From Flaccisagitta enflata (Eukaryota): a DNA stretch of 64,000 nt. The DNA lies in NCBI GenBank assembly GCA_965153355.1, contig OZ231126.1:38440001-38504000 (forward strand). Reading direction: 5' to 3'. The translations under genes and the position numbers were made by a program. Positions 10,307 through 64,000 of the stretch are shown here, piece by piece (position 1 is the stretch's first letter; each line of letters opens with the position of its first letter). The notes beneath the pieces were generated by a model. It searched no databases. It saw only the letters and a list, made by a program, of their open reading frames with translations, and had not been told where the DNA came from.

Positions 10307-10897
10307 GTTTTTGGGCAGCGGCCCCGAAGGGGTCGATGACCTATGCTTTCACACATATGGGGGATTTTCTCCTTCTTCTTCTCCTCCTACGTCCCCCCCC
10401 CTCAAATCCCAGTCTCGAGGCCCAAATTCCAGTCTCGAGGCCCAAATCCCAGTCTCGAGGCCCAAATCCCAGCCTCAAGGCCCAAATTCTGGCCTCAAGG
10501 CTTAAATCCTAGCCTGGAGGCCAAGATTTCAGTCTTGAAGCCCAAATCTCAGCCTCAACGTCAAAATCTCAGCCAAGAGGCCCAGATCCCGGCCTTGAGG
10601 CCCAAATCTCAGCCTCCAGGCTAGGATTTAGGCCTTGAGGCTAGGATTTGGGCCTTGAGGCTGGGATTTGGGCCTCGAGACTGGGATTTGGGCCTCGAGA
10701 CTGGAATTTGGGCCTCGAGACTGGGATTTGAGGGGGGGGGGGATGGAGGAGGAGGAGGTGGAGATAATCCATATGTGTGAAAGCATAGGTCATCGACCCC
10801 TTCGGGGCCGCTGCCCTGCTCCCCCCTCAACTTCAACCACAACCTACTTAGGCAGGGCACGGGTACCGCTGACCATCTAACGCTTTTGCGACTATTT
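10307..10897 (+). mobile_element. Short interspersed non-autonomous repeat, family B, with 48-bp subterminal inverted repeats and an internal 21-bp tandem repeat
   Basis: GGGCAGCGGCCCCGAAGGGGTCGATGACCTATGCTTTCACACATATGG at 10313-10360 is inverted at 10769-10816. The internal CCCAAATCCCAGTCTCGAGG-type units flip orientation midway, and the flanks are T-rich. Related copies at about 583-995, 8590-8740, 49060-49680(-), 59006-59520 and 63668-64000. Confidence 0.7.
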
Positions 10898-11206: not shown

Positions 11207-11718
11207 GGTTGGTGCCTGGGCGTCACTTTATTTGTCAGTCAGACTCAATGTCTGTTTTCCTGTCAGTTTGTCTAACTTGTATCGATTACTTGGATGACAG
11301 AAGTAGGCACCAACCATTTTGAGATCATCTGTCCGTCTATCTCTTTGGTCGTCCGATCATCCGACCGTTCACCCACTCATTCAAAGTTACGATTTGCCGT
11401 GGGCATTGTCTTTGCCTATTTCTCCTTGTTTTCCTTTTCCTCTCAGTCTTACTCATTCTTTCTCATTAATTAAGCTGCGATTTTTTACGTTTTCTGTGGC
11501 ATTTGAAATCTTCGATGATCCGTTGTGATCCGGTCTTCCAAAGTTGTTGTTATCCGGCTCTTATAGTTGTGATCCGGTAATTATTTTCCACTACCAGATG
11601 TCGATCGCTGTGAGAATCTCCACATTCCCCACCATCTCCAGGTCAAGAAGCGCTCGATCGGACGCATTCGACTCCGCGGATCCGGAGAATAGGAGGGGCT
11701 CTCTCGCCATCGAAAATC

Positions 11719-11870
11719 CAAGATGGCGTCCGCTCGACTGCAGAGTGGAGGAAATCGAGGAAGAAGGAGAGAGATCTTCGATCGACGGAGGAAGGGGAGG
11801 AACGCGCGCGCGCGCCGGAAGCGCTGACTTCCGGTTGAGAATTGATGAACTATATCTTCTCAACCGCTTA
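11719..11870 (+). promoter_or_regulatory. Candidate LTR promoter elements (YY1-like CAAGATGGCG, paired ETS-like CCGGAAG/ACTTCCGG, inverted repeat CGGTTGAGAA..TTCTCAACCG)
   Basis: Motif matches in the CpG-rich half of the LTR; the same motifs are retained in the diverged solo LTR at 30910-31697. Confidence 0.4.
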
Positions 11871-12129
11871 GAGGAGGAAAGACTTCGACCCCTCTATCGA
11901 ATTCCCACGACGTGACGAGTCTGTTTATTATTGTTTCATTGCTGCCAAATAATTTCAAATCTCGTGATGTTTTGACTCATTTTGCTATTTCCAGGTTAAG
12001 TAAAAGTAGCTTCCTGACTTTCTTTCTGACATTCGATTACACGATCTCAGTTAAAGACTCGATTTTTGATGCTTTTTCCCCGACTTCCCTGCCCTGCGCC
12101 TAGATTGGAAACCGTTAGACAACATCCGT

Positions 12130-12229
12130 GTAAGTCCTTGACCTTTTATCATTTTGGCGCCATATAGAAGTATCCTTCATTGATGTACAGAGCTTGTCTT
12201 AACTTTTTCCTTTTTTCTCTGTCCGTCAG
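12130..12229 (+). other. Putative 100-nt intron inside the LTR
   Basis: GTAAGT donor at 12130-12135, and a polypyrimidine tract plus CAG ending at 12229. Both are conserved in the 3' LTR and the solo LTR. Confidence 0.55.
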
Positions 12230-12393
12230 GATTCCACGAATAGACTGATTTCGTGGACAACTTGACCGCTCATCTCAACAATTCGTCCTAAGCGGGTGTG
12301 CGTTCCAAATCTTTAGCGCAGCTACGCAGTGGAGTCAGTTCTCGCGATTACGCATCAGGAGCTTGCTAAGAAACTAGACGCTAAACGCTCTCA

Positions 12394-12405
12394 ATTCGTG
12401 GAATC
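12394..12405 (+). promoter_or_regulatory. Non-tRNA primer-binding site, complementary to LTR nt 12230-12241
   Basis: ATTCGTGGAATC immediately follows the LTR-terminal CA and is the exact reverse complement of GATTCCACGAAT at 12230-12241. Confidence 0.7.
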
Positions 12406-12437
12406 AAAAACCATCAACGATCCACGCAACGTCAACG

Positions 12438-15400
12438 ATGTCGACCGCCAACAACAACGCCAACGCCGACGCGATGTCAATGCCGCCACCTTCGCTGCCC
12501 AATCAACGCAGAAAAGCCTTTCGTCCAGCCGACTGTGTGTCTGTCGTTTCCGACTCATCTGTCTACGCGGGCGCAATGGACCCCGTGGCTACGACGCTTC
12601 ACGGATTACGATTGGCGCTACGCAACACGCGCAACGCCTACATGTCGGCGTTGAAACAAGCCGATACCCTCGACGACGACGATATATTGGACTTTTACCA
12701 AGATATGGACTGCCTTCGAAAGGAGGTGTGGTTAGCGGCGTGGCGACTTGTCAACCAGACAAAGACTTACTCACATGCAGAGTCGACCAACAATCCCGAC
12801 AAAGCGGCGTCACTGTTATCGACTGCCGAAAGCTCATTGACGGAAGTACGAAACTGTGGGACCAATCATGCTTCCACGATAAAAACACTTTTGCGTCGCA
12901 TCTATTCCTGCCGACCTACCACGACATCCACGACGATTCACCAGAGACTGGAGCAAAACGCGCTCTCGAGATGACGATGGGGTCGTCGACGCATTTCGTC
13001 CAGTCCCTTTCACGACGACGCAAATCGACGCCGAACACAACCGGCGACGATGGAGACGCGGGAGAGGACGACTTGCCCGTCGGTACGGAAGCGGCGAATC
13101 TCAATGCAGCGGAACAACGCCACAACGCGCCGCCCCATACGCCAGGCGCGATACAAGACGCCGAGGAGATACGTATAAACTTTGAACCTCCGACGCCGGC
13201 GACGCCGGCGAGGTCGCGCTTCCTGTCGGCTAGAGACGATGGAGACGATGACGCCGACGACGCGATGGAAACGTCATGGCCGAACAACGACGCCGACCTC
13301 CCTCCAGGCGCCGTTGGCGGCGCCCCTCCCACACAAGATCTTCTCAACATGCTACAGCAGTCGATCGTCGACGGCGACAAAAACGCTCAAGGCGACGCGA
13401 TGGTGAACGTCGTCCAACGTCTTGTCAACGACGTCAACCAAGTCCGACGCTCGGTGGCGAGAGAAGCACGCGCAAACACGCGATTCCGTCTCAGCTCGCG
13501 ATCTGTATCTCAACAACGCGAAGAAAATGCCCGGCAGTTGACGGCAAACATCGCATTAGACGCAGCCGTTACTGCCCGGACAGACGCGGTCACTGCCGGA
13601 ATTGACGAGAGGAAAAAAGGGGAGGAGGAGGAGAGGAGGAAGAAAGAGAAGGAGGAGGAGGAGGAGAGACAACGCATCCACGCTGAAGAAGTGAGAAGGA
13701 AGGCAGAGGAGAGAGAAAGGAGCAGGAGGAGAAAAGGAGGACGAACTTGAAAAACAAGATCGCCCAGGAGAAAAGAGAGAAAGAGGAGAGAGAAGAAAAG
13801 AAAAGGAAGGAAGCAGAGAGGAAAGCAGAGGAGGAGAGAAGGAAGGCGGTGGCAAAAAGAGACGCGGAAGAAAGAAAGAGGATGGAGGAGAAGAAAAGAC
13901 GCGAAGAGAAGAAAAAGGAGGAAGAGAAGAAAAAGAAAGAGGAGGAGGAGAGGAAGAGGAGAGAGGCGCAAAAGAAAAGCCAGCAGAGACAACCACCTTC
14001 CAAGACGCCACCCCCAGCCGCACGTGAACATCCTCTCCACGAGCAACTGCGCACGAGACAAGATGCAGCGGAGCAAGAAAAGTATGCGATGGATCACGCG
14101 GACGCAATGGCAAGGGTCCAACAATTGATCAGCGACCTCAACCTGGAGGACAGCGTCGTTTTGCAGACACGTGTTCCACCGCGCAAATCGACGCCGCCAT
14201 CACCAAGCTCACCCGTCATCGTCCGCCAGATCGCGGGTGATCTTCCAGCTCCGCAAGCGGCCCGAAATGCACGCGGGAGTCAGCGCCCTCTGGTCGACGA
14301 CGTCTTCGATGACGAGGGGTTCGAACGCGTCGACAGACGGAAGTCGAGGAAGTCGCCACCCCCAACGCCGTCGCCTCCTATGTATCAAAGACGTCAAACC
14401 GGAAGTGACTCCGCGCGAAATGGCCTCGCACATTCGCAGTCCTTCGCCGAGAGGATGAACGCCGCCTCTTTCATCGACAACCCGATCGCCTACGACGCCC
14501 GCGTCAGAGCAAAGGACGTGGGATTGAGAGAAATGCGCGCAGCACGCCCAAGAGAAGCGTATGGATACCTCGAGCCGATCGACTACATCATCGCCAAGTC
14601 TAAATTCGAAAATGCCGCCTCCAACATCGAGCTAGACGAAATCGACAAAGTGACTGAATTGGCCAACGTCTTCGCGAATCCAGCGAAGGAAATTATCGAC
14701 GGTCAACAACTGATCATCAAGGCGCACAATATGCGCCGTGTCTACAGCACCTTGTGGAGACGCCTGGACGAGATGTTCAACACGAGCGCCAACCCATTCC
14801 AATCGGCCGTCGACAGCATCTGCAGGAAAGGAAAGGTCCCAGAAAACGATATGAGAGCCCATCAATCATTGATTGGCACGTTGTACAAACTGGAAAACGT
14901 CGCAGAATTGCTGAATGTACCCGGAGAGTGTGATCGTGACGTCCACATTCGCCGCATCATCAACGCGAGGGTGCCACACATCTCGACGGACTATTGGAAA
15001 GCAAGCGCGCGTGAACAAGCTCGCCATGGCACGGCTTACGGCTTCCAAGAACTCATCGAGGAAGTGAAACATTGGGTATCGTACAACAACCTCAAAGAAC
15101 CAACACGCATGGCGCCGAAACCGACGAAGGTTGCAGCGACTGCAGTTGGTCCGGCGACGTTTAAGGAACAGCTCGTCAACTCACCTCCGAAACAGCAACC
15201 CAACGACATCTGCAATATTTGTGGAGGTCGTCACAATTCTCATTCGTGCAATGTTTTGGAAGCCATCCCATCAGCAGAGGATCGAGTGAAGAAGTTGGCG
15301 GAGAAACGTCTATGTTTTCATTGTTTCTGCCCAAACCATTCGGCGCGCGACTGCAAAGACAAGCCAACATGCTCATCTTGCAACAAGAGACACGCAACTT

Positions 15401-15579
15401 TGCTGCACGACCGCCAATGGAAGCCAAAAGGGAATGGAGAAGGAATCACGTTCAAGACGCCGAATGCCGCCGCATTAGCCGCAGCCGCTGCCGCCGCCAA
15501 AACCGTTCCTCCAGCACCCCCAAGCAGCTCGTCGACGGATGACTCTGCATCTGATGAAGGAAGGGTGATGGAGGCATGA
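12438..15579 (+). CDS. gag: BEL/Pao gag (about two frameshifts in this copy or assembly)
   Basis: Joined from ORFs 12438-12974, 12329-13750 and 13747-15579. Long E/K/R coiled coil; C-terminal knuckles CNICGGRHNSHSC, CFHCFCPNHSARDC and CSSCNKRHATLLH. Confidence 0.85.
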
Positions 15580-18500
15580 CTCGCTGCCACCTCCGCGATG
15601 AGGACGGTGGTCGCGGAGGATGATGTCACGCGACCGATTGTTCCTGTAAAGATCACCAACGCATCGACGGGCCGTTCCACCGTAGTGTTGGGGATGATCG
15701 ACAGCGGTGCGGATCGTGACGTTTTATCGTTTCAAATCGTTAAAAAATTAGACTTACCAACTGAAAAGATGCTGATGCGCGTGCATACGGTCAATTGTGA
15801 GGTGGTGGAGGAGAAAGTTTTGGCGTCCTTCATCCTTTCATCGATTGACGAGGAATACAACGTCCACATCAGCAACGCACTTACGGGAGAATTATTGACG
15901 GGTGAAGCGGATATTGCTCCATGCCAACGCGACTTCACAAATCAATCTCATCTTCGCGATATTCCATTTCCAAAAGCAAATGGTCCTGTCCAATTGATCA
16001 TCGGCGCCGCCCATTACGACGCGACGATGCCCGTGGAGGCAAGAAGAGGTCCATCAGGATCTTTGACAGCCTTCAGATGCGGTTTTGGATGGACTGTAGC
16101 AGGGAAGAGTGGACGAAGATCAGATGATACCGCTGTCATTAACGCAATCCACGTGGATAACGCCGCATTGAGCAAATCTCTCGACCGCATGTTCTATCAC
16201 GACTTCGCCATGTGTCGGAGGAAGAAATGGGCCAGTCTGAAGAGAATCGTCGCGCGGTGAAACGAGTGATGGAGACGATATACTTCGACGAGAAACTCCA
16301 AAAATACGTCGTGGGACTTCCATGGCGCTATGACAAGGAGAAGATCATCGAGATTATCAAATCCGTTAACGCACGCGCGATGACGATTAAGAGGACAAAA
16401 AGTCTCCGATACAAACTCTCAAATAATCATGACCTCCGCGATCGCGTCTTCAAAGAAATGGACAAATTTGAGGATACGGGCGTGGCGATTGAGATTGATC
16501 CGACGAATGACGACGCAAGCATCTCATCGCCACGCTGGTACTTGCCTATCCATGTAGTGGAGGAAAGAAATAAAACGCGGATTTGTCACGATGGACGCGC
16601 GGAGACTGGCGGCATTTGCCTCAATGAACTACTGATTGGAGGTCCGAATATCATGAACGTCTTGACTGAAGTTCTTATGAAATTTCGCCTTTATAAAATC
16701 GGTCTGATGACTGATATAAAGGCGTTCTTTCATAATGTCCGCGTCCATCCTGAGGACGCGGACACGTTCAGATATATGTGGTTCACTGACAAAAGCATGA
16801 GAGAGGCAGTCGTGATGCTCTTCTTGGCGCACATTTTTGGATCTGTGTCATCGAGTCTCGTCACCAGCTATGTTTTACGCCATCACGCAGAGAAGATCAA
16901 GCCCGACTTCCCGGAAAACGTCTACGAAATGTTGAGACATGCCTTCTACGTCGATGATGGCTCTGGTGGTGCGGATTCAGTCGACGAAGCACTGCAGCTG
17001 AAGCAGGATCTCATCGCCGCCATGAAAAGCGGCGGATTTACGTTAACTAAATGGAAATCGAACGCGGTGGAGGTGATGGACGACGATCCGAATGTCGCAG
17101 TCGACTTGAGCGCCAAACTCGAGGAGCCGACGAAGGTCTTGGGAGTCCAATGGTTGCCGTCGACGGACTGCTTCATCTTCAGATGCGATCCAGAAGCATG
17201 CAAGAGGGTGGCAACGACTCCTCTGAATTGGTCTCCATGCAAGCCGACAACTATGATCCCTTAGGCTTCACTGCCCCCCGCGCCCTTGAAGGGAGGAGGT
17301 GTCTTCAGTTGACGAGAGCTTCCGAGAAGGGATGGGATTCGACGATGGAGGAGGCGTTAATCAAACGCTTCGCCAAATGGTACTCTGCGACTCCATTGCT
17401 GATCCAGATTGAAATTCCGCGCCACATTGAATGGGGCATTGTGAAGGCCGTTCGACGTGAAGTTCACATCTTCTGCGACGCCGCCATCCCTGGTTTTGGG
17501 GTAGTGGGCTAGTGGTTGGTGGAAGATGAGGATGGAACAATCCGCGTTACCATTTTGTGCGCCAAGGCTCACGTCGTCCCTCTTGATGCGTCAAAAGCGT
17601 CGCACCATAATTCAGTGCCGAGGTTAGAAATGACAGCGGCAGAGAAAGCGGTGAAACTCAAACTTTTCATCAAGAGGACCATTCCAAAGGTGACTGAGGA
17701 CATGGTGACGCTCTGGTCAGATTCAGAGGCGGTGCTGAAGATGATTTTCGACCATAAGTCTAAACGCCCAAGCTTCTTCGCAAACCGACTTTCAAAAATC
17801 CACAGCGGCTCAAGTGATTCCCAATGGAGGTGGGTTGATTCGGAGAATAACTCGCGGACTATTGTTCGCGGGGTATTGATGCCGGCTGACTATGAAAAAT
17901 GGGACATCTTCCATTTCGGTCCGAAGTTTCTCTACCTTCCCAAATCTGAGTGGCCGGTGATGAACATCGCGACGGCGCCGGAAGCGTCAATCAACGCCGT
18001 CGCGACGGAAACGGTGGAGGAGAAGGAAGGAGAGAAGGAAAAGGAGATGTTCGCTTATGCAGTCGCCGCCCGTCGCCAGGAGTGGGTGGCGAAATTGCGT
18101 TTGATCGCCGTGGTTGTGAAGTGCACGCAGCGATGGAGACAGAAGGTGAAGGCAAAAACTAGAACAGCGACAACGACGCTGCCAAATCCATACTCTGTAT
18201 CTATGGCTGAATTGTACGACGCACAACGCCGCTTGATCAACGCGATCCAGTTCAAACATTTCCATGGAGAAATAACCAAGTTGAAGGCGGTGGGAAAAAC
18301 GACGCCGCTGATCAACGACGCCGGCGCCAAAGTGATCTGCAAAACCTTACGCCATCACAATCCGTTGTCGACGAGAAAGGAACGATGCGTGTCGGGAGCA
18401 GACTCGTGAATGCGGATATCGGCCATGATGAAAAATACCCGATGATTCTCCCGTCGAAAGATCCAAACGTCGCTTCTCTGATTCGCCATGTCCATCATCA

Positions 18501-19593
18501 GGATCTTCATGCAGGCCCAAAACACGTCTTGTGCCAACTGCGACGCTTTGTGTGGATTCTTCGTGGTCTCCAGGCGGTGAAGACAGTCATCCACCATTGT
18601 GTTACGTGCCAAAGGAACTTTAAAGATCCTATGAAGCAGCAGATGGCGCCTCTTCCTCAACGTCGGCTTATTCCAACGGCCCCCTTCGAGGAGGTGGGAC
18701 TCGACTGCATGGGTCACTTCCTGGTGAAACTAAATGGAAGAGCGGATCACAAAGTCTGGGCAGTGGTGTTTACATGCATGGTTTCAAGGGCGGTGCATGT
18801 GGAGGTGTTGTTTAAAATGGACACAGAGGCAATGATCAACGCCATCATTAGATTCGCGGCGAGACGGCAAACGGTGCGTCGCTTCATATCAGACTGTGGT
18901 ACCAACCTAGTTGGGGCGAATCGCGTCATGAAGGAGGAGATGCAGTCGTGGAACGCGTCGTCGACGGTGGCTCTGCAGCAGCATGGACTCCAATGGGACT
19001 TCATTCCTCCGGGGACTCCTCATTACGGCGGCGTATGGGAAAGGGTCGTATCCCTTTTCAAAAAACATTTGGCGTCCATTACTTCCGGTCACGTGCTCCA
19101 TTATGACGTCTTCCAAACGGCGGTGATTGAGGTGGAAGGAATTCTCAACCGTCGACCTCTCACGCCTTTGAGCGACGATCCTAGCGATACATCAGCGCTG
19201 AGGCCGGTCAACATCTTGCATCCGTCGACGTTCTCACACTCGTCGGCAGCGATTCTTCCTCCAGAGACCGGAAACGACGCCGTGGGAACGAGATGCCGAT
19301 GGAGAAACGCACAGGCCCGCGTTGACGCCTTCTGGAAGGTATGGCGCGCTGAATACCTTCAGTTGCTGCACGCAAGGAGCAAATGGACAAAGTCGGAAGT
19401 TAACATCAAAAAAGATGCATTGGTCATCATCGTTGACGAGACGCTTCATCGGCATCAGTGGTCTTTGGGACGCGTCGTCGAAGTGGAAGGATCTGGTGGT
19501 CATGTCCGGAAAGCACAGATCCGACGCCCCGACGGCAAGATTGTCCTCAAAGATCGGTCGAAGATCGTCCGATTGGAGTTGGATTCAGATTAA
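15580..19593 (+). pseudogene. pol: BEL/Pao pol (protease, RT, RNase H, integrase), disrupted by frameshifts and one stop
   Basis: Protease MIDSGAD; RT DIKAFF, IFGSVSS and FYVDD; YDPLG; RNase H HIFCDA, VPRLE and WSDS; integrase HHCC finger plus GLDCMG, ISDCGTN and WERV. Frame breaks near 16210, 17220, 17850 and 18365, and a TAG at 17510-17512. Confidence 0.92.
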
Positions 19594-20135
19594 AAACGGA
19601 TAAGTGTGAAGAGAGAGAGAGAAAGTAGACCAGAGAGAAGCACAAGTGTTTCTATTTGTAAAGACTATGCAGAAAATGAGGATTTTTTTCTCATGATTAT
19701 TTTTTGGTCTTGTTTACTTTTTCTCAGTCGGTCTGTCTGATATGTCTTTGTGTGTAATGACAGGAGAGAGAGAGGTACATGGTGCCCCAGTCAGTTGAGA
19801 GTGTCCGCATGATTGACTGACAATCTAAATTTTGCCATGCCATTTCAATCTTGTATTGACCATATAAAGGCATTTGTTCGTCATTTTCTTTTCCGTTTTA
19901 TCCATATCATTGACTGTTGAGTATGGAGGTCATTTGAGGCGCTGATCGAAGAGTTTTATTTCTTTGTCTGCGTATACCATTTAATCTTCCTCAATGTTAA
20001 TGGATATGTCTTCCTCTTTCCGTTATGTTACATATCGAAATCTGAATTTTCTCCAAAAACAGGCGTTTACACTATCTTACGCTAAAAGCTTCCCCTTGTC
20101 GGTATCGTCGCATAACTGTTGCAGAAAGATCCATC

Positions 20136-22481
20136 ATGTCGCAGCAGAATAACCAAGGCACGCCGGACGAGATCCGCGAAGCGAGGAGGCAGCGAATGGC
20201 GCAAGCCCAGGCCGATTTGGTGAGGAGTCATGAGGAGGAGACGAGGAGGATGGAGGAGGAGCGGGCGAGAGTGGAAGAGGAGAAGAAGAAAGTGGAAGAA
20301 GAGAAGAAAGACCCGGAGAAGAAGAGGAGGAGACAGGAGCAGGAGGCCAGGGCAGCGTCCCTCAGAGAACAACGCAGGCTTCGCGGGTTGCACCAGTCCG
20401 TCGCTGGAGGAGCTGATGACGTCATCGACGGGGTCAGCCATCTCTTCAACGACTCGTCTTCCGGCGCGTGGACCGTTACGGACCCTCTTCCTGCTCGGGC
20501 CCTCAACGCGTTCGATGCCAACGCCTTTGCCGACAAGCGCGCCGCCGGTGAAGCGCGTCGTCAAGCCGACGATGCGCTCCGGGCGGCAAGAAAGGCGAAA
20601 CGACAACAAGCTGCCAACGAAAGCTTCGATACGGCAGTCTTGGGAGTGGAGGCGCTCATGGGGGAGTCGACGTCGACCTCCACCACGGACGCCCCCCCGC
20701 CGCCACGCGGAGCAGAGGAAGTGGAGCGACAGGATGTAAATGACCCTGACAACTTGGACTTTGACGATGACGACGACGACGACGACGACGATGACGATTA
20801 CGAGACTCAGGATGACAGTGAGGGCGATAAGATGGACACTAACGAACATGACGGAAGGGGAGAGGGACTTCCTCCCGGGGAGGTTGCTCGACCCGACTCT
20901 ACAGGCCCCCAAGGGGTACTTACTGCTCCTTCCCTTGCTCCCCCAATTCTGCCGCCGCCGCCGCAGACGTCGCAGGCGGTCGTGGAGTCGCCGACGTTAC
21001 AAGTAACGCCGGCCGCAGACTCGACCGCGCCGGCGCCGTTTCAAGCATCACCTGACGCGACGCTGGTGATCCCGCCGTACATCAGTGATCTGTCCTCCAT
21101 CTCGCAGGAACAAGCTGTCGAATTGGTGAAGATCTACAACGCCCAAGTCGACGCCCTCATCGAGCGGAAGCACACTGCGATATACCACGACACGCAGCGT
21201 CGCCTACGCGCGGAGAGAGATGCTCTTCATCCACAAGCCGAGCGAAGAGCATATGTTCCGACACAAAGAGTTAGAGACGAATTAGTTGAAGAGGACGGTG
21301 AGATTGCGACGGTTGAAACACGCGAGACGCTCCAATTGTGCAAGATCATCAACATCAGATCTATTGGAGCAACGGCGGACATGGGAAATGGGACTTTGAG
21401 TGACATTTCCAATGGAAAAGCCTCAAATCAGAGGAAAAGACGACGTGAAGGAGCTGCTCGTCGGATCGCAGAGGCTATTCGTTCGACCGGAAGTGGCAGC
21501 GATCAGCGTCAAACGCCCGCGACGCAGGATCCTCCACAACATCATCCAAGAGACGATCGACGAGCCAATGCTGGCGCCAACAATCTGCAAATCGAAGTGA
21601 GAGAGAAGAGACGTCGGGTGAGCAGGGGTGGACCGCCGGATGCATCCGCATCGTTATCATCGACGGTGATGGATGGTCCCGCGAGATTACCACATGATCC
21701 CGCTCCCCGGCCTCCTCCTCCTCAACGCCAGCGGTCACGTGACATTTCACCAATCCGTGTCCCAACTCAAACGACGACGACAACGAACAATCAAGGGGGT
21801 GTGCTCGCAGGGGCAGCCGCAAATCTGCCCCCACCTCCTCCTCCTCCCGTCAACGACGACCAACAGCGACGAGAGGAGCAAAACGCCAACAAAAAGAAGA
21901 AGAATCGTCGTCCAAAAAGGAAGCCTAGAGATGCGTCGACGTCCAACAGGTCGTCAACGTCGACGGCATCCGCTTCTTCTCCTTCACATCGCCCTCCCCG
22001 ATCGCCGGAGGACCTTCTGACCGAGGCGATGTTGGCCGTCGCCATCAAGTTGCCAAATCATCCTCGGTCAAAGGATATTCAAAAGGTTGTAGACATTCTT
22101 CCGGCGGCCTTCTATCCCAACTCATCTCCGATGGATCGCGCGATCTACGCTGCCGATCACGCCGTGGATAGAGCCAGATCGGCGAGGAAGCTCATCGAAC
22201 AATACAACTTTAGGATGAAGGTTGTCGGTGAGCACGACGCAAAGGTCGCTCAGATGGCCCAGCTGCTGTCCGACGCGAAGAAGGAAGCCGACCGCGTCCG
22301 CGCTGAGTTTTCTCAGTCCGACGGACAAATGCCGTCGACTTCCGGCACTCAACGCCACTCCGCGCCGTCGAGCGACCACGCGCCACCTTCCGGCAGAAAC
22401 CCCCCTCCACGCCACAGTAGGAAAGACGACGCGCCATCCTATCGTGGAGGAAAGGGCGGCAGGGGTAAAGGCCGGAAGTAG
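20136..22481 (+). CDS. Retrotransposon accessory ORF3, 781 aa, function unknown (not env-like)
   Basis: Intact ATG-to-TAG ORF between integrase and the 3' LTR with the same codon style as gag. It has coiled coils, a poly-Asp tract, Pro-rich regions, basic NLS-like runs and an RGG-like tail. Acceptor-like TTTTCTCCAAAAACAG ends at 20062. Confidence 0.85.
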   Translation: MSQQNNQGTPDEIREARRQRMAQAQADLVRSHEEETRRMEEERARVEEEKKKVEEEKKDPEKKRRRQEQEARAASLREQRRLRGLHQSVAGGADDVIDGVSHLFNDSSSGAWTVTDPLPARALNAFDANAFADKRAAGEARRQADDALRAARKAKRQQAANESFDTAVLGVEALMGESTSTSTTDAPPPPRGAEEVERQDVNDPDNLDFDDDDDDDDDDDDYETQDDSEGDKMDTNEHDGRGEGLPPGEVARPDSTGPQGVLTAPSLAPPILPPPPQTSQAVVESPTLQVTPAADSTAPAPFQASPDATLVIPPYISDLSSISQEQAVELVKIYNAQVDALIERKHTAIYHDTQRRLRAERDALHPQAERRAYVPTQRVRDELVEEDGEIATVETRETLQLCKIINIRSIGATADMGNGTLSDISNGKASNQRKRRREGAARRIAEAIRSTGSGSDQRQTPATQDPPQHHPRDDRRANAGANNLQIEVREKRRRVSRGGPPDASASLSSTVMDGPARLPHDPAPRPPPPQRQRSRDISPIRVPTQTTTTTNNQGGVLAGAAANLPPPPPPPVNDDQQRREEQNANKKKKNRRPKRKPRDASTSNRSSTSTASASSPSHRPPRSPEDLLTEAMLAVAIKLPNHPRSKDIQKVVDILPAAFYPNSSPMDRAIYAADHAVDRARSARKLIEQYNFRMKVVGEHDAKVAQMAQLLSDAKKEADRVRAEFSQSDGQMPSTSGTQRHSAPSSDHAPPSGRNPPPRHSRKDDAPSYRGGKGGRGKGRK

Positions 22482-23307
22482 AGGGTCTCGTCGCCATGAT
22501 CCCGGCCATCGTCTTCCCACTTCAATCGCGCGTATCATACCGACGTTTACGTCGTCGCGGAAGACTAGCGGTTGATCATCCAATGGCGACTCGAGATGCT
22601 TCCGGTGACGGACAGGCCGGCCGCCCTCGCTTCTCTAGAGGGCGGTCGGGGGAGGGGGTCCCACCGGGACCCCCCTGCGACTCTCCCCGTAAGTGTCGAG
22701 GGGTAGGGGGGTCTTGAATTGCTCATGAACCAATTGTACCAAATTAGAATATTAAGCGTATGATTTGTGGAATGAGAATCAGTTCTAACTCTCCTGATCC
22801 GTTTCTCCATACCCATTCCGGGTGTGGGGGAACCCCCCCCCCGCTTACATTTAAGAGACGTGCGTGCTGGAGTGATGGACAATCCTAACTGGGCGTCGGT
22901 ACGTAGTATAGTATAGTTTATACACTAGTATAGACCACTTAGCATATAGGCTAATTATTTATTTCAGTCCATCATTCCCGGGGATCTAGTATCGTTACCT
23001 TTTTTTCTTGTTTAGCATGAAGACTGGAGGCAGAATGGAGCGAGAGGAGCGATTCATGACCAGACCGTAGCGATAGCCCGGACGATCGACGGTGGTAGGT
23101 GTTTCTGCTCCTAGAACCCATTTTCTGAATCGTCTTATCCGCGCGAGATCCACGATATTTATAATGGTGTCTTTGTAATATTTAAAAATTTTTGTTTTTG
23201 AGATGAGCCCCGGATGTTGTCATAGCTTGTAAATTTTTAGAATGAACGGTATTCCCTGACAAGAAACTAGTTAGATACGAGATTTGAAATTTTTTATCAA
23301 ATATTTT

Positions 23308-23317
23308 AAAAGGTGGC
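23308..23317 (+). promoter_or_regulatory. Short polypurine-tract position (AAAAGGTGGC)
   Basis: Purine-rich run directly upstream of the 3' LTR TG; short and imperfect. Confidence 0.5.
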
Positions 23318-24103
23318 TGTGAGAATCTCCACATTCCCCACCATCTCCAGGTCAAGAAGCGCTCGATCGGACGCATTCGACTCCGCGGATCCGGAGAATA
23401 GGAGGGGCTCTCTCGCCATCGAAAATCCAAGATGGCGTCCGCTCGACTGCAGAGTGGAGGAAATCGAGGAAGAAGGAGAGAGATCTTCGATCGACGGAGG
23501 AAGGGGAGGAACGCGCGCGCGCGCCGGAAGCGCTGACTTCCGGTTGAGAATTGATGAACTATATCTTCTCAACCGCTTAGAGGAGGAAAGACTTCGACCC
23601 CTCTATCGAATTCCCACGACGTGACGAGTCTGTTTATTATTGTTTCATTGCTGCCAAATAATTTCAAATCTCGTGATGTTTTGACTCATTTTTGCTATTT
23701 CCAGGTTAAGTAAAAGTAGCTTCCCTGACTTTCTTTCTGACATTCGATTACACGATCTCAGTTAAAGACTCGATTTTTGATGCTTTTTCCCCGACTTCCC
23801 TGCCCTGCGCCTAGATTGGAAACCGTTCGACAACATCCGTGTAAGTCCTTGACCTTTTATCATTTTGGCGCCATATAGAAGTATCCTTCATTGATGTACA
23901 GAGCTTGTCTTAACCTTTTTCCTTTTTCTCTGTCCGTCAGGATTCCACGAATAGACTGATTTCGCGGACAACTTGACCGCTCATCTCAACAATTCGTTCT
24001 AAGCGGGTGTGCGATCCAAATCTTTAGCGCAGCTACGCAGTGGAGTCAGTTTCGCGATAACGCATCAGGAGCTTGCTAAGAAACTAGACGCTAAACGATC
24101 TCA
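23318..24103 (+). repeat. 3' LTR (786 bp)
   Basis: TGTGAGAATC...CGATCTCA, followed by the TSD ATCGC. Confidence 0.95.
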
Positions 24104-24511
24104 ATCGCGTAAATACATTCCGATCAAGATTTTTTGCTTCCGTCATTCGGTAACAAAAAACGGTTTTCCTCCATAGGGCCGTCGATAGGTCCGTCCGTTT
24201 GTCAAGCGTTCAGTTCCATAATTCCAAGTTGATATGCTTACTTCTATACTTTACCTTTCTTAGAAGTTTAAGCGTAACTGCCGCTTGTAGGCGTGGAACA
24301 AGGCCGGATACGCGGCTACCCCAGTCGCGTGCTGGTGAGCAGGGCAAATATTCAGGGTCACTACTCACTAGAGCATTTTGGCAGGAGCAGTAAGGCCTAA
24401 GACCCCCAAAACATAAAAAGTAAAAAGAGGACCGACCGACCAACCAACCGACGGACGGACGGACGGATAAAGCGGGTTGCAGGGCCTGCACGCGGAAAAT
24501 ACAATTACTTT

Positions 24512-30604: not shown

Positions 30605-33600
30605 TAGTCCAGGCTTTTTAAAAAAAGCATCGGCGATTCTGCAGCAAAGTCTGAAAATTTGCATACAGGGTCAGTTTTTGATGCTGAACAAGACTAGGAT
30701 CGGTCCACGTCAAAATTTTTTATGGACCTACCTAAAAAATGCATTTTTTCTCAAAAAAAAATTTCAAAATTGCGCCAACGCCAAACCGTTTGACGGATCA
30801 TCATAAAAATTTAGTTGAAGCAAAATATAGGTTTTTTTTACTTCCATTTCAAATTTTATCAAAATTGGTTCACTAGAAGCGGAGATATAGCTGTTTAAAG
30901 TCTGGGCATTGAAAGCGTTTACGGTCTGATTTCCTATCAAGCTCCTGATGCGTAATTGCGAGAACTGACTCCACTGCCGAGCTGCGCTATTGAGTTGGAA
31001 CGTACACCCGCTTATAACGAATTGTTGAGATGAGCGGTCAAGTTGTCCGCGAAATCAGTCTATTCGTGGAATCCTGATGGACAGAGGAAAAGAAAAAGGT
31101 TAAGAACACACTGTACATCAATGATGGATACTACTGTAAATGCGCCAAAAAGAGTAAAAAGGTCAAGGACTTACATGGATGTTGTCGAACGGTTTCCAAT
31201 CTAGGCGCAGGACAGGGAAGTCGAGGGAAAAACATCAAAATCGAGTCTCTAATTGATATTGTGAAGTCAAATGTCAGTAAGAGAGTCGGGGAAGCCACTT
31301 TACTTAACCTATAAATAAATAACACAATAAATCAAAGCATCACGAGATTTGAAATTATTTGGCAGCAATGGAACAACAATAAACGTAAGCGTCGCGTCGT
31401 GGGAATTCGCCAGAGGGGTCGAAGTTGATTCTCCTCTAAGCGGTTGAGGAGATAAGTCCATCAATCCTCAACCGGAAGTCAGCGCTTCCGGGCGCGCGCG
31501 CGTGCCTCCTCTTCCTCCGTCGAGCGAAGATTCTCTCTCCTTTTCCTCGATTTCCTCCACTCGACTGCCGAATGGACGCCATCTTGGATCTTCGACGGCG
31601 AGATATCCTCTCCACTCCTTCGGGATCCGCGGAGTCGATTGCGTTTGATCGAAGGCTTCTTGACCTGAATATGGTGGGGAATGTGCAGAATGTCACAGGT
31701 ATGTTTTTCAAAAAAATGCTATATTTGATTTTTGGCAAAAAAAATTGAAAAAATCATCTTAAGACCCCCAAACTTTTTTTGGATATTACTTTGACCATTT
31801 GACACCTACTGAAAAAAAACGAATAAAAAAAATATTCAGTTTTGCTCCCATTATGGCTAAAAAAACAAAAAATTGGATATCAAAATCTACACCAAATTTT
31901 CAAAAAAAGCTATTTTTGTATAAATAGCCTAATTTTTGATGCCAGCTCCAGGAATCAGTCCTCTATAGGCATATTTACTTGACTGCAAAGTTTTAGAATG
32001 GTCCAAAACCAAAAAAACACAAAAAAACTGTTCAAAGTCTAAAAATTTGGGGCCCAAAATTTTGCATTTTTGGATACCTTTGGACATTTGGCATTGCTAC
32101 GGCCAAACCCTTAGAGCCAGTTGCACCAAATTTTGCATCCAAGTCGCCAATCACCTGGAGCATCTTCGTGCAAAATTTCAGGCCATATAGCCAAGTTTAA
32201 GTAACATTTTTGGGCTAAAAATACCCAAAAAACGCCCAAAAAATGCGAAAAAATGTTTTTTTAGCCATATAGGCTAAACTATGTGTCCCACTATCATGAA
32301 ATTTTGCATTGATGGACTTGACCTCAACATGTACCTGCATGAAAAATTTCATTGGCCTATGATAAGCGGTTTTCTCAAAATTCAATTTTGAATTTTTTCA
32401 AAATTTTGCATTTTCATTTTTGAAATACATTTTTAATTTTTTCAACAAAGATAGAGTGTATCATGATGCACACTATGAGAATTTATTCTTCATAAGCATA
32501 TTCACTTGAGTGCAAAATTTCACAATAGTCCTATAACTCAAAAAACCTAAAATCACTGCTCAAAATCATGATATTAGGGGTACAAAATTTTGCATTTTTG
32601 GACATCTTAGGACATTTTGGCTTGCTACAGTCTAACACCTTGGACTAGTGGCCCCAAATTTTGCATACAGTTTGTCAAGCACCAGGGCCATCTTCATGCA
32701 AAATTTCAGCCTAAAAATCAAATGATTGCAAAAAAATGTTTTTTTAGCCATGCTACAGCCAAACGCCTTGGACTGGTAGCCCCAAATTTTGCATACAGCT
32801 TGTCTAGCACCAGGGCCATCCTCATGCAAAATTTCCGCCTAAAAATCAAATGGTAAATAAGTTTTTTGGCTTAAAAATCCCCAAAAAATGCCCAAAAAAT
32901 GCAAAAAAATGTTTTTTTATTATGCTACAGCCAAACGCCTAAGACTAGTGGCCCCAAATTTGGCATATAGCTTGTCAAGCGCCAGGGCCATTTTCATGCA
33001 AAATTTCAGCCTAAAAATCAAACGATAAGTAGGTTTTTTGGCTTATAAGACCCAAAAAATGCCCAAAAAATGCAAAAAAATGTTTCTTTAGCCATGCTAC
33101 AGCCAAACGCCTTGGACTAGTGGCCCCAAATTTTGCTTACAGCTTTTGAAGCACCAGAGGCATCTTCATGCAAAATTTCAGCCTAGAAATCAAATGACAA
33201 GTAGGTTTTTTGGCTTAAAAATCCCCCAAAAATGCCAAAAAATTGTTTTTTTAGCCATGCTACCGCCAAATGCCTTGGACTAGTGGCCCCAAATTTTGCA
33301 TACAGCTTGTCAAGCACAAGGGCCATCTTCATGCAAAATTTCAGCCTAAAAATCAAATGATAAGTAGGTTTTTTGGCTTAAAAATCCCCCAAAAATGCAA
33401 AAAAATTGCAAAAAAATGTTTTTTTAGCCATGCTACAGCCAAACGCCTTGGACTAGTGGCCCCAAGTTTTGCATATAGCTTGTTAAGCACCAGGGCCATC
33501 CTCATGCCAAATTTCAGCCTGAAAATCAGATGATAAGTATGTTTCAATGCTTAAAAATGCCAAAAAAATGCCAAAAAAAAGCAAAAAAATGTTGTTTTAG

Positions 33601-36600
33601 CCAAAAAGGCCAAATTATGTGTCTCACTATCATAAGATTTTGCATATGTGGACTTGACCTCAACATGTACCTGCAGGAAAAAATTCATTGACCTGTGATA
33701 CACTGTTTTTTCAAAATTCAATCTCAAATTTTTTTCAAAATTTTGCATTTTTGGTCAAACGATTTATTGTTCTTTTATCAAGATAGAGTGTATTTTGATA
33801 CAGGCTTTCAGGATTTTTTCCTCATAACATATCTACTAAGGTGCAAAATTTTACAATGGTTCAATGGCTCAGAAACTCAAATTTGCTGCTCAAAGTCATG
33901 AAATTATGGGTCTGAAATATTGCATTTTTGGATATTTTAGGACATTTGGTCTTGCTATGACCAAGCATTTTGGGCCAGTGGCCCCAAATTTTGCACACAA
34001 GTTGCAAAGCATTAGGTCCATCGGTCTATCTGTCACACTTTACTTTTTTTGGGTTTTTGCGGTTTTTGGTCTCACTGGTCCTGCTTAAATGATCTGGTGG
34101 CCTCAATTACAGGCCTTGTCCACCTGCACGCGACTGGGGTAGCCGTGTAGCCATGTATCTGGCCTTGTTTTCTCTTACATAGCTTATATATTGTGTATAC
34201 CCACTGAGGCTGAGATCTAGTGCCTTGAGGCTGGGATTTGAGCATTGCAGCTGGATTTTGAGCTGTAAGGCTGTTATTGAGGCCTTGAGGCTGGGAATTG
34301 AGTTAAAAGAATCACTACATACCATATTCTTTTTTCTCTTTCATAGCTCACAGATTTTAGTATCATATAGAATCAAGTCTTCTTCGTGTCTACGTATCTT
34401 GGAGATGTTGACAAAGTCTTGGATTGATTAGTCTTCTGTTTTATTCACACATGAAGCGAAGTGAAGAAATATCAGCTCAAAAAGCAACAATTACAAAGAA
34501 GATGCATCAAAAGTATCTCCTTACTGTTTCTGAAGGAAACACTTATTTCTTTGCTGTAGTAATTGAAACTGATTTTGATATAAGACGGTATTTAAGAAAT
34601 CCAAAAGTCGCAGAAGCAATACAGCAATCTGTAAGAATCTTTGCAGAGATGATTAAGATTTCAAGAGCATTACAGAGAGAAAAACACAATGTTTTCTGAT
34701 AGAAACAGAGACATAGACATAGACTTGATCTTGTTTATGGCTTATGCAGAAAAAAAACACCTGCTTGCACTATAAAAGCGTAGGTATCATTAACAAGTAC
34801 CATGCTATCATACTACGTAATTAGTCTAATGCAACACTGCATCATCTTATTGGGCCCATAAATGATGCAGTGTTACCAAAGACTATGGTTCTTTACCTTC
34901 AAGGAAGTAAGTACATCTACATTTGAATAAAGCATCAAGAGTCAAGTTTCAGCTTGATCATATTTGAAAACGTAATAGCAACTATTCAGAAAAGAAACAA
35001 CCAAGTTGTAGTGATTTTTTATCAAATGATATCCTTCTAAAGTTGAAATTTTTCCAGGTGATGTTGCTTAGAATTTTTAAAAAAGTTTCAACTTGCCCAA
35101 AGTGCTTGGCCATAGCAAGACCAAATGTCCTAAAACATCCAAAAATGTAATATTTTGGACCCCTTATTTCATGACTTCGAGCAGCAAATTTGAGTTTCTG
35201 AGCCATTGAACCATTGTAAAATTTTGAACCTTAGTAAATATGCTTATGGGGAAAAAATTCTGAAAGCCTCTATCAAAATACACTCTATCTTGATAAAAGA
35301 ACAAAAAATCTTTTGACAAAAAATGCAAAATTTTGGAAAGATATTGAGATTGAATTTTGAAAAAAACAGTGTATCACAGGTCAATGAAATTTTTCCTGCT
35401 GGTACATGTTGAGGTCAAGTCCACATATGCAAAATCTTATGATAGCGAGACACATAGTTTGGCCTATTTGGCTTAAATAACATTTTTTTGCAATTTTTTG
35501 GCATTTTTTTGGCCTTTTTAGGCCTTGAAACATACTTATCATTTGATTTTCAGGCTGAAATTTGGCATAATGATGGTCCTGGTGCTTGACAAGCTGTATG
35601 CAAAATTTGGGGCCACTAGTCCAAGGCATTTGGCTGTTGCATGGCTAAAAAAAACATTTTTTTTTTTGCATTTTTTGGGCATTTTTTGGGGATTTTTAAG
35701 CCAAAAAACCTACTTATCATTTGATTTTTGGGCTGAAATTTTGCATGAAGACGGCCCTGGTGCTTGACAAGCTGTATGCAAAACTTGGGGCCACTAGTCC
35801 AAGGCGTTTGGCTGTAGCATGGCTAAAAAAAACATTTTTTTTCATTTTTTGGGGATTTTTAAGCCAGAAAACCTGCTTATCATTTGATTTTTATGCTGAA
35901 ATTTTGCATGAAGATGGCCCTGGTGCTTGACAAGCTGTATGCAAAATTTGGGGCCACTAGTCCAAGGCGTTTGGCTGAAGCATGGCTAAAAAAACTTTTT
36001 TTTGTGTTTTTTGCATTTTTGGGGGATTTTTAAGCCAGAAAACCTGCTTATCATTTGATTTTTAGGCTGAAATTTTGCATGAAGATGGCCCTGGTGCCTG
36101 ATAAGCTGTATGCAAAATTTGGGGCCACTAGTCCAAGGCGTTTGGCTGAAGCATGGCTAAAAAAAACATTTTTTTGCATTTTTGGGCATTTTTTGGGGAT
36201 TTTTAAACCAAAAATCTTACCATTTGATTTCTAGGCTGAAATTTTGCATAAAGATGGTCCTGGTGCTTGACAAGCTGGAAGCAAAATTTGGGGCCACTAG
36301 TCCAAGGCGTTTGGCTGTAGCATGGCTAAAAAACTATTTTTTTGCAATTTTTTTGCATTTTTGGGGGATTTTTAAGCCAAAAAACCTACTAATCATTTGA
36401 TTTTTAGGCTGAAATTTTGCATGAAGATGGCCCTGGTGCTTGACAAACTGTATGCAAAATTTGGGGCCACTAGTCCAAGGAGTTTGACTGTAGCAAGCCA
36501 AAATATCCTAAGATGTCCAAAAATGCAAAATTTTGTACCCCAAATATCCTGATTTTGAGCAGTGATTTTAGGTTTTTTGAGTTATTGGACCATTGTAAAA

Positions 36601-37718
36601 TTTTGCACTCAAGTGAATATGCTTATGAAGAATAAATTCTCATAGTGTGCATCATGATACACTCTATCTTTGTTGAAAAAATTAGAAATGTATTTCAAAA
36701 ATGAAAATGCAAAATTTTGAAAAAATTCAAAGTTGAATTTTGAGAAAACCGTTTATCATGGGCCAATGAAATTTTTTATGCAGGTACATGTTGAGGTCAA
36801 GTCCATCAATGCAAAATTTCATGATAGTGGGACACATAGTTTAGCCTATATGGCTAAAAAAACATTTTTTTGCATTTTTTGGGTGTTTTTTGGGTATTTT
36901 TAGCCCAAAAATGTTACTTAAACTTGGCTATATGGCTTGAAATTTTGCACGAAGATGCTCCAGGTGATTGGCGACTTGGATGCAAAATTTGGTGCAACTG
37001 GCTCTAAGGGTTTGGCTGTAGCAATGCCAAATGTCCAAAGGTATCCAAAAATGCAAAATTTCGGGCCCCAAATTTTTAGACTTTGAACAGTTTTTTTGTG
37101 TTTTTTTGGTTTTGGACCATTCTAAAACTTTGCAGTCAAGTAAATATGCCTATGGAGGACTGATACCTGGAGCTGGCATCAAAAATTAGGCTATTTTTAC
37201 AAAATTAGCTTTTTATGAAAATTTGGTGTAGATTTTGATATCCAATTTTTTGTTTTTTTAGCCATAACGGGAGCAAAACTGAATATTTTTTTGATCCGTT
37301 TTTTTCAGTAGGTGTCAAATGGTCAAAGTAATATCCAAAAAAAATTTGGTGGACAAAAAATGATTTTTTTAATTTTTTTTGCCAAGAATCAAACATAGCG
37401 TTTTTTTCAAAAACATACCCAGACTTTAAACAGCTATATCTCCGCTTCTAGCAAACCAATTTTGATAAAATTTGGAGTGGAAGTAAAAAAAACATATATT
37501 TTGCTTTTATGATGATCCGGCAAACGGTTTGGCGTTGGGGCAGTTTTGAAATTTTTTTTTGAGAAAAAATGCATTTTTTAGGTAGGTCCATAAAAGATTT
37601 TGACGTGGACCGATCCTAGTCTTGTTCAGCATCAATAACTGACCCTGTATGCAAATTTTCAGGCTTTCCTGCAGATTCGTCGATACTTATATTTTTATTC
37701 CTTTAGCAGCCGGGACTA
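30605..37718. mobile_element. 7.1-kb foldback DNA element with inverted arms of about 2.6 kb
   Basis: The left arm (30605 to about 33975, minus the solo LTR) is the reverse complement of about 35090-37718. Termini are TAGTCCAGGCT and AGCCGGGACTA with TTT on both sides. Each arm holds tandem subrepeats of about 180 bp, and the spacer is about 1.1 kb. Confidence 0.88.
30910..31697 (-). mobile_element. Solo LTR (788 bp) of a diverged subfamily of the same BEL element
   Basis: The reverse complement matches the 11609-12393 LTR end to end (TGTGACATTC...CGCTTTCA). Flanks are GGCAT and GGTAT, and the opposite foldback arm shows the empty site GGTAT. Confidence 0.92.
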
Positions 37719-62595: not shown

Positions 62596-64000
62596 CAGTG
62601 CAATCAATACATACAATGGCTCTTGATTTGATCAAACAAATAAAAAGATTTGCAGTCACTGGAGACGAAAGCTTGGTGAAAAGTGACCAATGCTTACGAC
62701 TTTTTTCCTCACGGCGACAGCCGCCATTACTGGTATGCTCTTTTCGACCTAATCATTACGAACAGACAGACAGACTGATAAACATTCATATGGATAGATA
62801 GGTGGACGGATAGACAAACAAATGCATCGACAAACGGAAGGACGAACAGACGAAAGGACGGACAAGGCGATTCTGCAATGGGTAACATCTAATTGGGCTA
62901 AAAAAAGTGCCCAAATTTTGTGATGGCCAAAATACCTGTAAAAATAGCTTCTTTTTTTAAGATCATATGAAATTTGTCAAAAATCAAATCGAGCATGTTA
63001 AAATGTTAACCTGTTAACAGGTTAAAACGCCAGGAGGGAATTCTTGGATTTGTTCTAACATGAAGGCTAGAGACCCAGAGATCCCATCACCCATCCCAGG
63101 CCATCCCTTTCTGCAGTTTTGGTTGTAATATTAACCCCGCCAACTTAACCTTTATGCCCTTTCTTCTAATTTTTTTTCATTACTGAAGCTATCATATACC
63201 AGGATTGAACCCATTCCTCTCCAGGTTCGATATTATGTAGTTGGTGGGTGAACCGAACCAACCAACCAACCAACCAACCAAAAAATGGTGTGTGGGCAAC
63301 TTAAACTGAACCGCAAACTCAAGATTGGGTTCGCTTTAAGCTTTTTCATATTGTCACTGTTGAAAAAAAGATATGAAGAAACACTTATACAGGACTGATA
63401 CAGGACATCAACATTCTGAGGCTGCTCCATTAGAAGTTGATCTCGCTGGGCAAGACGTTGGAACCACTTACCAGTTGGCAGTTACCATCTCCGATCCATG
63501 TACGACTGGTTTCCTTCCGGCTATTTCAATTTCTTTACCTTTTCTTTGCCTTTTTCCCACTTTTCCGACCTTTATAGCCGCGTGCTACGCGACTCTACAC
63601 CCCGCTTTGTTGGTCGGTCGGTCGGTCGGTCGGTCGGTCGGTTGGTCGGTCAGTCGGTCGGTACCCATTTTGGACAGCGGCCCCAAAGGGCTCGATGACC
63701 TATGCTTTTACACGGGGAAATTTGTTCCTTATTCTTCTTTGTCCCCCCCCCCCCCCCCAAACTCCAGGATCATATTTCAGCCTCGAGGCCCATATCCCAG
63801 AGTCGAGGCTAAAATCCCATCTTAAGGCCAAAATCCCATCTTCAAGACCCAAATCCCAGCCTCAAGGGATTTGGGCCTCAAGACTGGGATTTGGGTCTTG
63901 AGGCTGGGATATGGGCCTTGAGGCTGAGATATGGGTTTAGAGGTTGGGGGAGGGGGGGACGGAAGAGTAGGAGAAGAAGGAGAAAATTCCCCTGTGTGAA

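Follow-up and report, generated by a model that had tools for sequence, protein, structure and literature searches.

A stop codon maintained between gag and pol in a deep BEL/Pao clade is probably read through

Retroviruses and their relatives need far more coat than enzyme, and obtain this by frameshifting, by readthrough or by means of a single polyprotein, the last being the solution ascribed to BEL/Pao elements. A 12.5-kb long terminal repeat (LTR) retrotransposon of BEL/Pao type in Flaccisagitta enflata harbours an in-frame TGA between gag and pol, and the question raised by this locus is whether the TGA is a mutation of a decaying copy or a regulated recoding signal, as the preliminary description of the sequence had proposed. 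The element was analysed in 64,000 nucleotides of the forward strand (NCBI GenBank assembly GCA_965153355.1, contig OZ231126.1, positions 38,440,001 to 38,504,000), referred to as the window; all positions are those of the window.

The gag-pol junction

The features of the junction were as follows:

15577..15579, + strand: in-frame TGA between gag and pol, followed by C at 15580
15588..15622, + strand: predicted RNA hairpin (folding), starting at +12 from the stop (U of UGA counted as +1)
15677..15683, + strand: CCACCGT, complement of the loop at 15604-15610; candidate pseudoknot partner, unsupported

On re-reading, the position of the TGA, the C at +4 and the letters of stem and loop were all as first described. 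Gag and protease share a frame: the stop-to-stop open reading frame (ORF) 13687..15579 is followed by the ORF 15580..16260, and the TGA, the sole stop between them, separates two coding regions that are both needed. The stop contexts of the element are UGA-C for gag, UAA-A for pol and UAG-A for a third gene (ORF3); UGA-C is a leaky context, although the hexanucleotide here, UGA CUC, is not one of those characterised.

The stem reported at this place was also confirmed: CCTCCGCGA (15590-15598) and TCGCGGAGG (15611-15619) are perfect reverse complements of each other. Together they form a core of 9 Watson-Crick pairs, to which a U15599-G15610 wobble pair is added, and folding extended the stem by the pairs A15589-U15621 and C15588-G15622, beyond a bulged A15620. 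The spacer from the stop to the folded structure is 8 nt, i.e. a stable 3' structure is predicted at the distance described for readthrough signals: a spacer of at least 8 nt is required for such structures, and they begin at +12 in Moloney murine leukaemia virus (MuLV; a pseudoknot), Venezuelan equine encephalitis virus (VEEV) and Colorado tick fever virus (CTFV; both stem-loops), according to a 2026 review (PMC13517186). The folding energy of the 41-nt hairpin was -21.5 kcal/mol (z -3.64), and 2 of 200 dinucleotide shuffles were equally stable. An equally strong hairpin starts at +6 to +15 downstream of 161 of 10868 positions (1.5%), and the hairpin ranks 9 among the distinct local hairpins of the 10.9-kb internal region. 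When the peptide was recoded with synonymous codons, 62 of 5000 versions folded as strongly; the hairpin is therefore stronger than the protein sequence demands.

The preliminary description had also suggested a pseudoknot between the loop (ACGGTGG, 15604-15610) and CCACCGT. The two segments are indeed complementary, but the pairing is not supported: a 7-nt complement of the loop within 150 nt downstream was found in 262 of 5000 shuffles (5.2%), i.e. at chance level, and CCACCGT pairs elsewhere in the minimum-energy fold of the 124-nt stretch. A compact H-type pseudoknot of the MuLV type was rejected, as the sole loop complement lies 57 nt beyond the stem, is of chance level and comes with no Rfam match. 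No Rfam family, the selenocysteine insertion sequence (SECIS) included, scored above threshold in 11500-24200 (E up to 1), and one sub-threshold snoRNA-like match (21478-21551) was considered a chance match.

Relatives are cut at the same boundary

Related proteins were searched with a query spanning the gag-pol border, with the stop read as X (P0002). In a word-indexed search, 26 proteins of 203-648 amino acids were matched, each by its gag or its pol half only (coverage of at most 56% of the query). For proteins of 649-2000 amino acids, 8 with at least 45% identity also covered one half only; among 11 distant proteins (23-28% identity), 9 were fused polyproteins that covered 75-91% of the query. 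HMMER, run exhaustively against 1.84 billion representatives, returned 4659 hits, and 190 matching proteins were fetched and classed. Sixty-three were pol-only proteins starting at their own N-terminus and 36 were gag-only proteins ending at their own C-terminus (99 of 190 cut at the boundary); 6 further gag-only proteins continued for 23 to 1198 amino acids, and 3 pol-only proteins had 37-79 residues upstream. The other 82 were fused forms of 25-32% identity, of which 41 matched in a single stretch and 41 in two. The best fused match of the HMMER search had 28% identity, and none of these searches, the one of 1.84 billion representatives included, found a fused relative above about 33% identity. 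The statement that most BEL/Pao elements have one fused ORF, made in the preliminary description, is consistent with these 82 distant relatives and with Atlas virus (PMC9094657).

On the gag side, eight relatives (P0010-P0014, P0016, P0018 and P0030; 59-92% identical) terminate at the aligned residue, in ...EA or ...NA; the final Ala is invariant and the rest of the tail is variable. A HATLLH-type motif was present in 37 of the 42 gag-only proteins, 35 of which end 40-68 residues past it (56 in the window), and the position of the stop is common to intact Gags down to about 45% identity. Separate intact ORFs do exist: a Gag of 1049 amino acids and Pols of 1300-1360 amino acids.

On the pol side, the window stop lies 41 codons ahead of the protease active site (D[ST]G[AS]). 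Thirty-three of the 63 pol-only proteins begin 20-38 residues ahead of this site, and none earlier. Sixteen begin at a Met directly ahead of it (17 with P0076, whose motif is a variant one), three Pols of 1300-1312 amino acids on 5-6-kb contigs among them. A Pol that began at such a Met would have no N-terminal protease strand, and its start would be too late to give a functional protease; ribosomes must therefore reach this region from upstream.

DNA of these relatives was also looked for in viral contig collections, and three scans gave nothing. Two other contigs were discarded: a bacterial metagenome contig (L001), where KLAEKRLCF was matched by chance in another reading frame, and a genome contig (L002) with a 19-residue chance match in a bacterial metagenome-assembled genome.

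Protease phylogeny

A tree of the protease region was built from 132 rows (50 split, 80 fused, 2 other), leaving out rows whose match did not cover most of the protease half or whose protease region was shorter than 120 amino acids. All 50 split rows fell on one side of one branch, with supports of 99 (FastTree, Shimodaira-Hasegawa-like, SH-like) and 98 (IQ-TREE, SH-like approximate likelihood ratio test, SH-aLRT). The split/fused label needed 1 change, against a mean of 40 for shuffled labels (0 of 500 shuffles as low). The rows had been picked by likeness to the window and some clustering is to be expected; the point is the exact match between label and branch. On this tree the gag/pol split has a single origin. 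The end branches within the split side reach about 1 change per column, and such long divergence with intact Gag and Pol indicates that the stop has long been kept; since a nonsense codon in a needed polyprotein would die out, it must be bypassed.

Copies in public sequencing runs

Contigs of four public runs were aligned to 14900-17600 at a likeness of at least 85%: 1909 contigs of X1 (one organism), 50 and 151 of X2 and X3 (marine metagenomes), and 77 of X15 (a marine RNA library, whose contigs are no proof of transcription). Statements about variants refer to the 40 rows listed of the 249 in the variant table.

The preliminary description had proposed, as a check, that the TGA should be fixed and the other disruptions copy-specific, and the alignments favour this. 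The TAG at 17510-17512 is a sense codon, by its third letter (17512), in all contigs of the four runs (all depth in X1, 10 contigs; 1 contig in each of the other runs). The two pol frameshifts tested are also missing elsewhere: in X1 the length differs from the window in 4 contigs near 16210 (10528 of 24012 depth) and in 3 contigs at 17223 (8351 of 24287 depth), in X2 and X15 it differs in all depth at both frame changes (16210, 17223/17224), and in X3 in all depth at 16210 and 17224. No variant at 15577-15579 was found among the 40 of 249 rows listed. These rows likewise hold no length difference near the junction in any of the four runs, the listed ones being at 16210 and 17223/17224. The junction is covered by contigs: at 15576, the third and synonymous position of the codon that ends gag, most copies differ from the window (21870 of 27772 depth in X1; all in X2 and X3). 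Variant rows are lacking between 15577 and 15698; with an expectation of about 1.8 among the 40 listed, this has no statistical significance and is no evidence of conservation of the hairpin. In all aligned copies, as in the window, pol lies in the zero frame behind a single stop, and the stop is conserved in intact relatives at the protein level and, in the rows listed, in near copies at the DNA level.

One contig (X2 record 19) belongs to a diverged lineage. Upstream of 15574 its letters translate to the tail of P0018 (...EQDIQN), and from 15574 to 15710 it is identical to the window at 85% without gaps; as it is gapless past the stop, pol is in the zero frame in that lineage too, which is about 60% identical. 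Likeness in this contig starts exactly at the last gag codon, with an unalignable gag tail before it and 137 nt at 85% identity after it. One X15 contig, at 15526 to 16470, spans the junction.

Copies of the family are very numerous in X1 (1909 contigs, with a summed word depth between 10^4 and 10^5). At 16210, some of this depth has the state of the window, which hints at an amplified defective subfamily.

Interpretation and comparison with known systems

That the stop is ancestral and maintained, and not a product of decay, is well supported by the common end of the Gags, the lack of a close fused form and the single branch of the tree, and this part of the recoding claim made for the junction stands. 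Readthrough itself is a further step, and programmed readthrough of the UGA is the best and probably the correct explanation. The TGA at 15577 is the natural end of gag in a deep BEL/Pao (Belpaoviridae-type) clade, not a mutation of the window copy. Most ribosomes would halt there and release Gag; in a small share a near-cognate tRNA would decode the UGA and translation would go on in the same frame into the protease, giving Gag-Pol. Leakiness would come from the UGA-C context together with the stable hairpin at +12, which may stimulate readthrough from a position at the mRNA entry channel while the stop occupies the A site. The outcome would be a fixed, low-rate ratio of Gag to Gag-Pol, as in gammaretroviruses.

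On balance, the data lean slightly towards a wider proposal: that this is a deep, undescribed BEL/Pao clade, common in marine plankton data, which abandoned the fused Gag-Pol for Gag-stop-Pol with UGA readthrough and a simple hairpin at +12, together with a giant 1049-amino-acid Gag and a conserved third gene. The gammaretrovirus strategy would then have arisen independently in a third family of reverse-transcribing viruses. No paper on stop-codon readthrough in BEL/Pao was found in a literature search which left out the 2003 survey by Gao et al., possibly covering BEL. A term search of de la Chaux and Wagner 2011 (PMC3118150) gave no mention of frameshift, stop codon or readthrough. The mechanism is familiar; its use by a whole BEL/Pao clade seems unreported. 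With a stop fixed throughout the clade, BEL/Pao elements would also have evolved translational recoding, and UGA-C with a 35-nt hairpin would be a compact natural signal for readthrough studies in invertebrates. For annotation, an in-frame stop at the gag-pol border in the split clade is no mark of a dead copy.

The junction shares with MuLV a single in-frame stop between gag and protease-pol, an RNA structure (stimulatory in MuLV) at +12 after an 8-nt spacer (PMC13517186; PMC4178896), an N-terminal region of the protease encoded across the stop and, as proposed here, the production of Gag-Pol by a fraction of the ribosomes. It differs in the stop context (UGA-C vs. UAG-G in MuLV), in the predicted structure (a simple 35-nt hairpin vs. 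a compact H-type pseudoknot) and in belonging to a BEL/Pao element, with no Rfam match. Type II readthrough signals (the alphaviruses VEEV and Sindbis virus (SINV), and the coltivirus CTFV) also have a UGA followed by C, with a stem-loop at +12 in VEEV and CTFV (PMC13517186; PMC3159437), but their hexanucleotide is UGA CGG or UGA CUA and their structures extend over 78-177 nt (vs. UGA CUC and 35 nt here), and they are found in replicase genes of RNA viruses and not at a gag-pol junction of a retroelement. In Tca2, a Ty1/copia LTR retrotransposon of Candida albicans, gag and pol likewise share a frame interrupted by UGA, a 3' structure is predicted, and Pol is translated from the gag-pol RNA (PMC2194720). 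It belongs to another superfamily and has a fungal host; in S. cerevisiae no readthrough was obtained with its junction alone, and a promoter lies inside that junction (PMC2194720). Tca2 is a warning that signals of this kind may be misleading. The LTRs, the protease-reverse transcriptase-integrase order, Peptidase_A17, DUF5641 and the Cys/His knuckles of Gag are common to the window element and typical BEL/Pao elements (Atlas virus, and the 82 fused relatives). The latter have one uninterrupted polyprotein (PMC9094657 for Atlas virus), whereas the clade described here has a stop 41 codons ahead of the protease active site, a 1049-amino-acid Gag and a conserved ORF3.

Alternative explanations

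Several observations weigh against readthrough driven by this signal. The hexanucleotide is UGA CUC, and the characterised ones are UGA CUA or UGA CGG (PMC13517186). The hairpin is one of about nine of comparable strength in the element, and the wider 124-nt stretch is ordinary in structure (z -0.69; 45 of 200 shuffles fold as well). As 40 of the 249 variant rows were listed, there is room for minority variants of the TGA. The Met of MRTVV, 7 codons past the stop, is kept in all close relatives (81-97% identity), and a Tca2 junction of the same gag-UGA-pol form, with a predicted pseudoknot, gave no readthrough in a reporter (PMC2194720).

The Met of MRTVV points to the main competing explanation, in which Pol is made apart from Gag and the stop merely ends gag. 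Ribosomes could reinitiate or initiate internally at the AUG at 15598, or Pol could have a subgenomic or spliced RNA, or a promoter, of its own. Foamy viruses do make Pol from its own spliced mRNA. Many of the more distant pol proteins (33 of the 63 pol-only ones) were called with a Met 20-38 residues ahead of the active site, and a minor promoter lies within the gag-pol junction of Tca2 (PMC2194720). Called Mets are weak evidence, however, as gene callers may print alternative starts as M, and the position of this Met shifts from -20 to -38, i.e. it is not conserved across the clade; in the 16 proteins mentioned above, three full-length Pols included, the first Met is right at the active site. 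Reinitiation after an ORF of 1049 codons is not expected in eukaryotes, no UGGGA-type motif was found within 60 nt upstream of the stop, and an RNA-library contig (X15) crosses the junction, though this last point is weak evidence. Separate production of Pol is thus considered unlikely. Somewhat less likely still is a bypass by a non-canonical route beyond the local signals, as proposed for Tca2, or possibly by frameshifting instead in part of the clade. The Tca2 reporter result speaks for it, since the Pol of Tca2 nonetheless came from gag-pol RNA (PMC2194720); against it, the window and all aligned copies have a single stop followed by pol in the zero frame, so that no frameshift is called for, and UGA-C with a hairpin at +12 matches canonical signals (PMC13517186).

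The two remaining explanations have very little weight. That the TGA, like the TAG at 17510, is a nonsense mutation private to a decaying copy or its subfamily would suit a copy which is broken at six other places, but this is effectively excluded by a stop position shared by intact Gags down to about 45% identity and by the clade of 50 protease rows, and by the lack of a close fused relative among the 1.84 billion representatives; the TAG, by contrast, is a sense codon in the contigs of all four runs. Least probable of all is that the UGA encodes selenocysteine and that the hairpin is a redefinition element: a UGA with a nearby 3' hairpin does resemble selenocysteine redefinition elements, but no SECIS was found in 11500-24200 (Rfam, E up to 1), and no retroelement is known to use selenocysteine recoding.

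Structure of the element and surrounding sequence

The features of the element outside the junction were as follows:

11604..11608, + strand: 5' target-site duplication ATCGC, read directly; the same 5 letters recur after the 3' LTR
11609..12393, + strand: 5' LTR (TG...CA), by blastn against the 3' LTR; ends read directly
12438..15576, + strand: gag, by tblastn of the intact 1049-amino-acid relative P0030 (three frames, 92-95% identical)
15580..19590, + strand: pol (protease, reverse transcriptase, RNase H, integrase, DUF5641), by Pfam and tblastn of P0029
19591..19593, + strand: pol stop TAA, followed by A
20133..22481, + strand: ORF3, 782 amino acids, charged, low-complexity; stop TAG, followed by A
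23318..24103, + strand: 3' LTR (TG...CA), with the purine-rich tract AAAAGGTGG just before it
24104..24108, + strand: 3' target-site duplication ATCGC, read directly

Two TG...CA LTRs flanked by a short target-site duplication, as in BEL/Pao elements, were found; the LTRs are 98.6% alike over 792 columns (blastn; 6 mismatches, 5 gap openings). The Pfam order in pol is RVT_1, Peptidase_A17 (Pao peptidase), Integrase_H2C2, rve and DUF5641. Peptidase_A17 (PF05380) scored 30 bits (cut-off 22.3), and RVT_1 scored 29.4 bits in the window pol, marginally below its cut-off of 29.6; PF05380, PF00078, PF00665, PF17921 and PF18701 are all present in the intact relative P0029. By this set and order of pol domains, Peptidase_A17 and the protease-reverse transcriptase-integrase order included, the element is classed from its sequence as a member of BEL/Pao (Belpaoviridae-type). 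The BEL/Pao-type Gag domain (DUF1759, PF03564) was not found, the window gag matching no Pfam family; PF03564 was recorded solely in distant fused relatives, with which the C-terminal knuckle region of the window gag aligns at 23-28% identity. The length of the element (12.5 kb, 11609-24103) is above the 4.2-10 kb quoted for BEL/Pao (PMC3118150). No second copy was found within the 64-kb window (tblastn of relatives).

The window copy is damaged at six places besides the TGA (five frame changes and one TAG). Compared with the intact P0030, gag changes frame near 12851 and again between 13684 and 13714; pol, compared with P0029, has three frame changes (near 16212, 17224 and 18364-18379) and the TAG at 17510-17512. 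P0030 ends in ...VMEA, at the same residue as the window gag, whose tail is rich in Ala and Ser and which carries three Cys/His knuckles. This type of Gag is very long: the 1049 amino acids of P0030 include a Lys/Glu-rich stretch. P0029, an intact Pol of 1332 amino acids, matched the window in four pieces (tblastn, 93-99.8% identical) and was 97% identical over the junction-spanning query. ORF3 matched no Pfam family and its sequence is not env-like; it is intact in relatives (761-815 amino acids, 55-93% identity).

LAATSA, just past the stop, and the other inter-domain motifs to which the preliminary description had likened it (VAATAV, INAIHV and INAVAT) are all present in the sequence. VAATAV (within PTKVAATAVGPATFKEQLV, window 15100-15160) and INAI after the protease (pol 16150-16170) are kept across relatives and may be protease cleavage sites.

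Other repeats were also observed in the window. A 20-nt repeat (GGATTTGGGCCTTGAGGCTG-like) occurs at 10564-10744, 34214-34314 and 63847-63967, one copy lying about 860 nt upstream of the element. A 29-nt unit forms a long tandem array at 38853-41000, with about 66 in-register copies, and a repeat of about 170 nt, 60-90% alike, forms two arrays, at 31970-34022 and 35338-37111 (families D11-D13, D16, D17 and D20).

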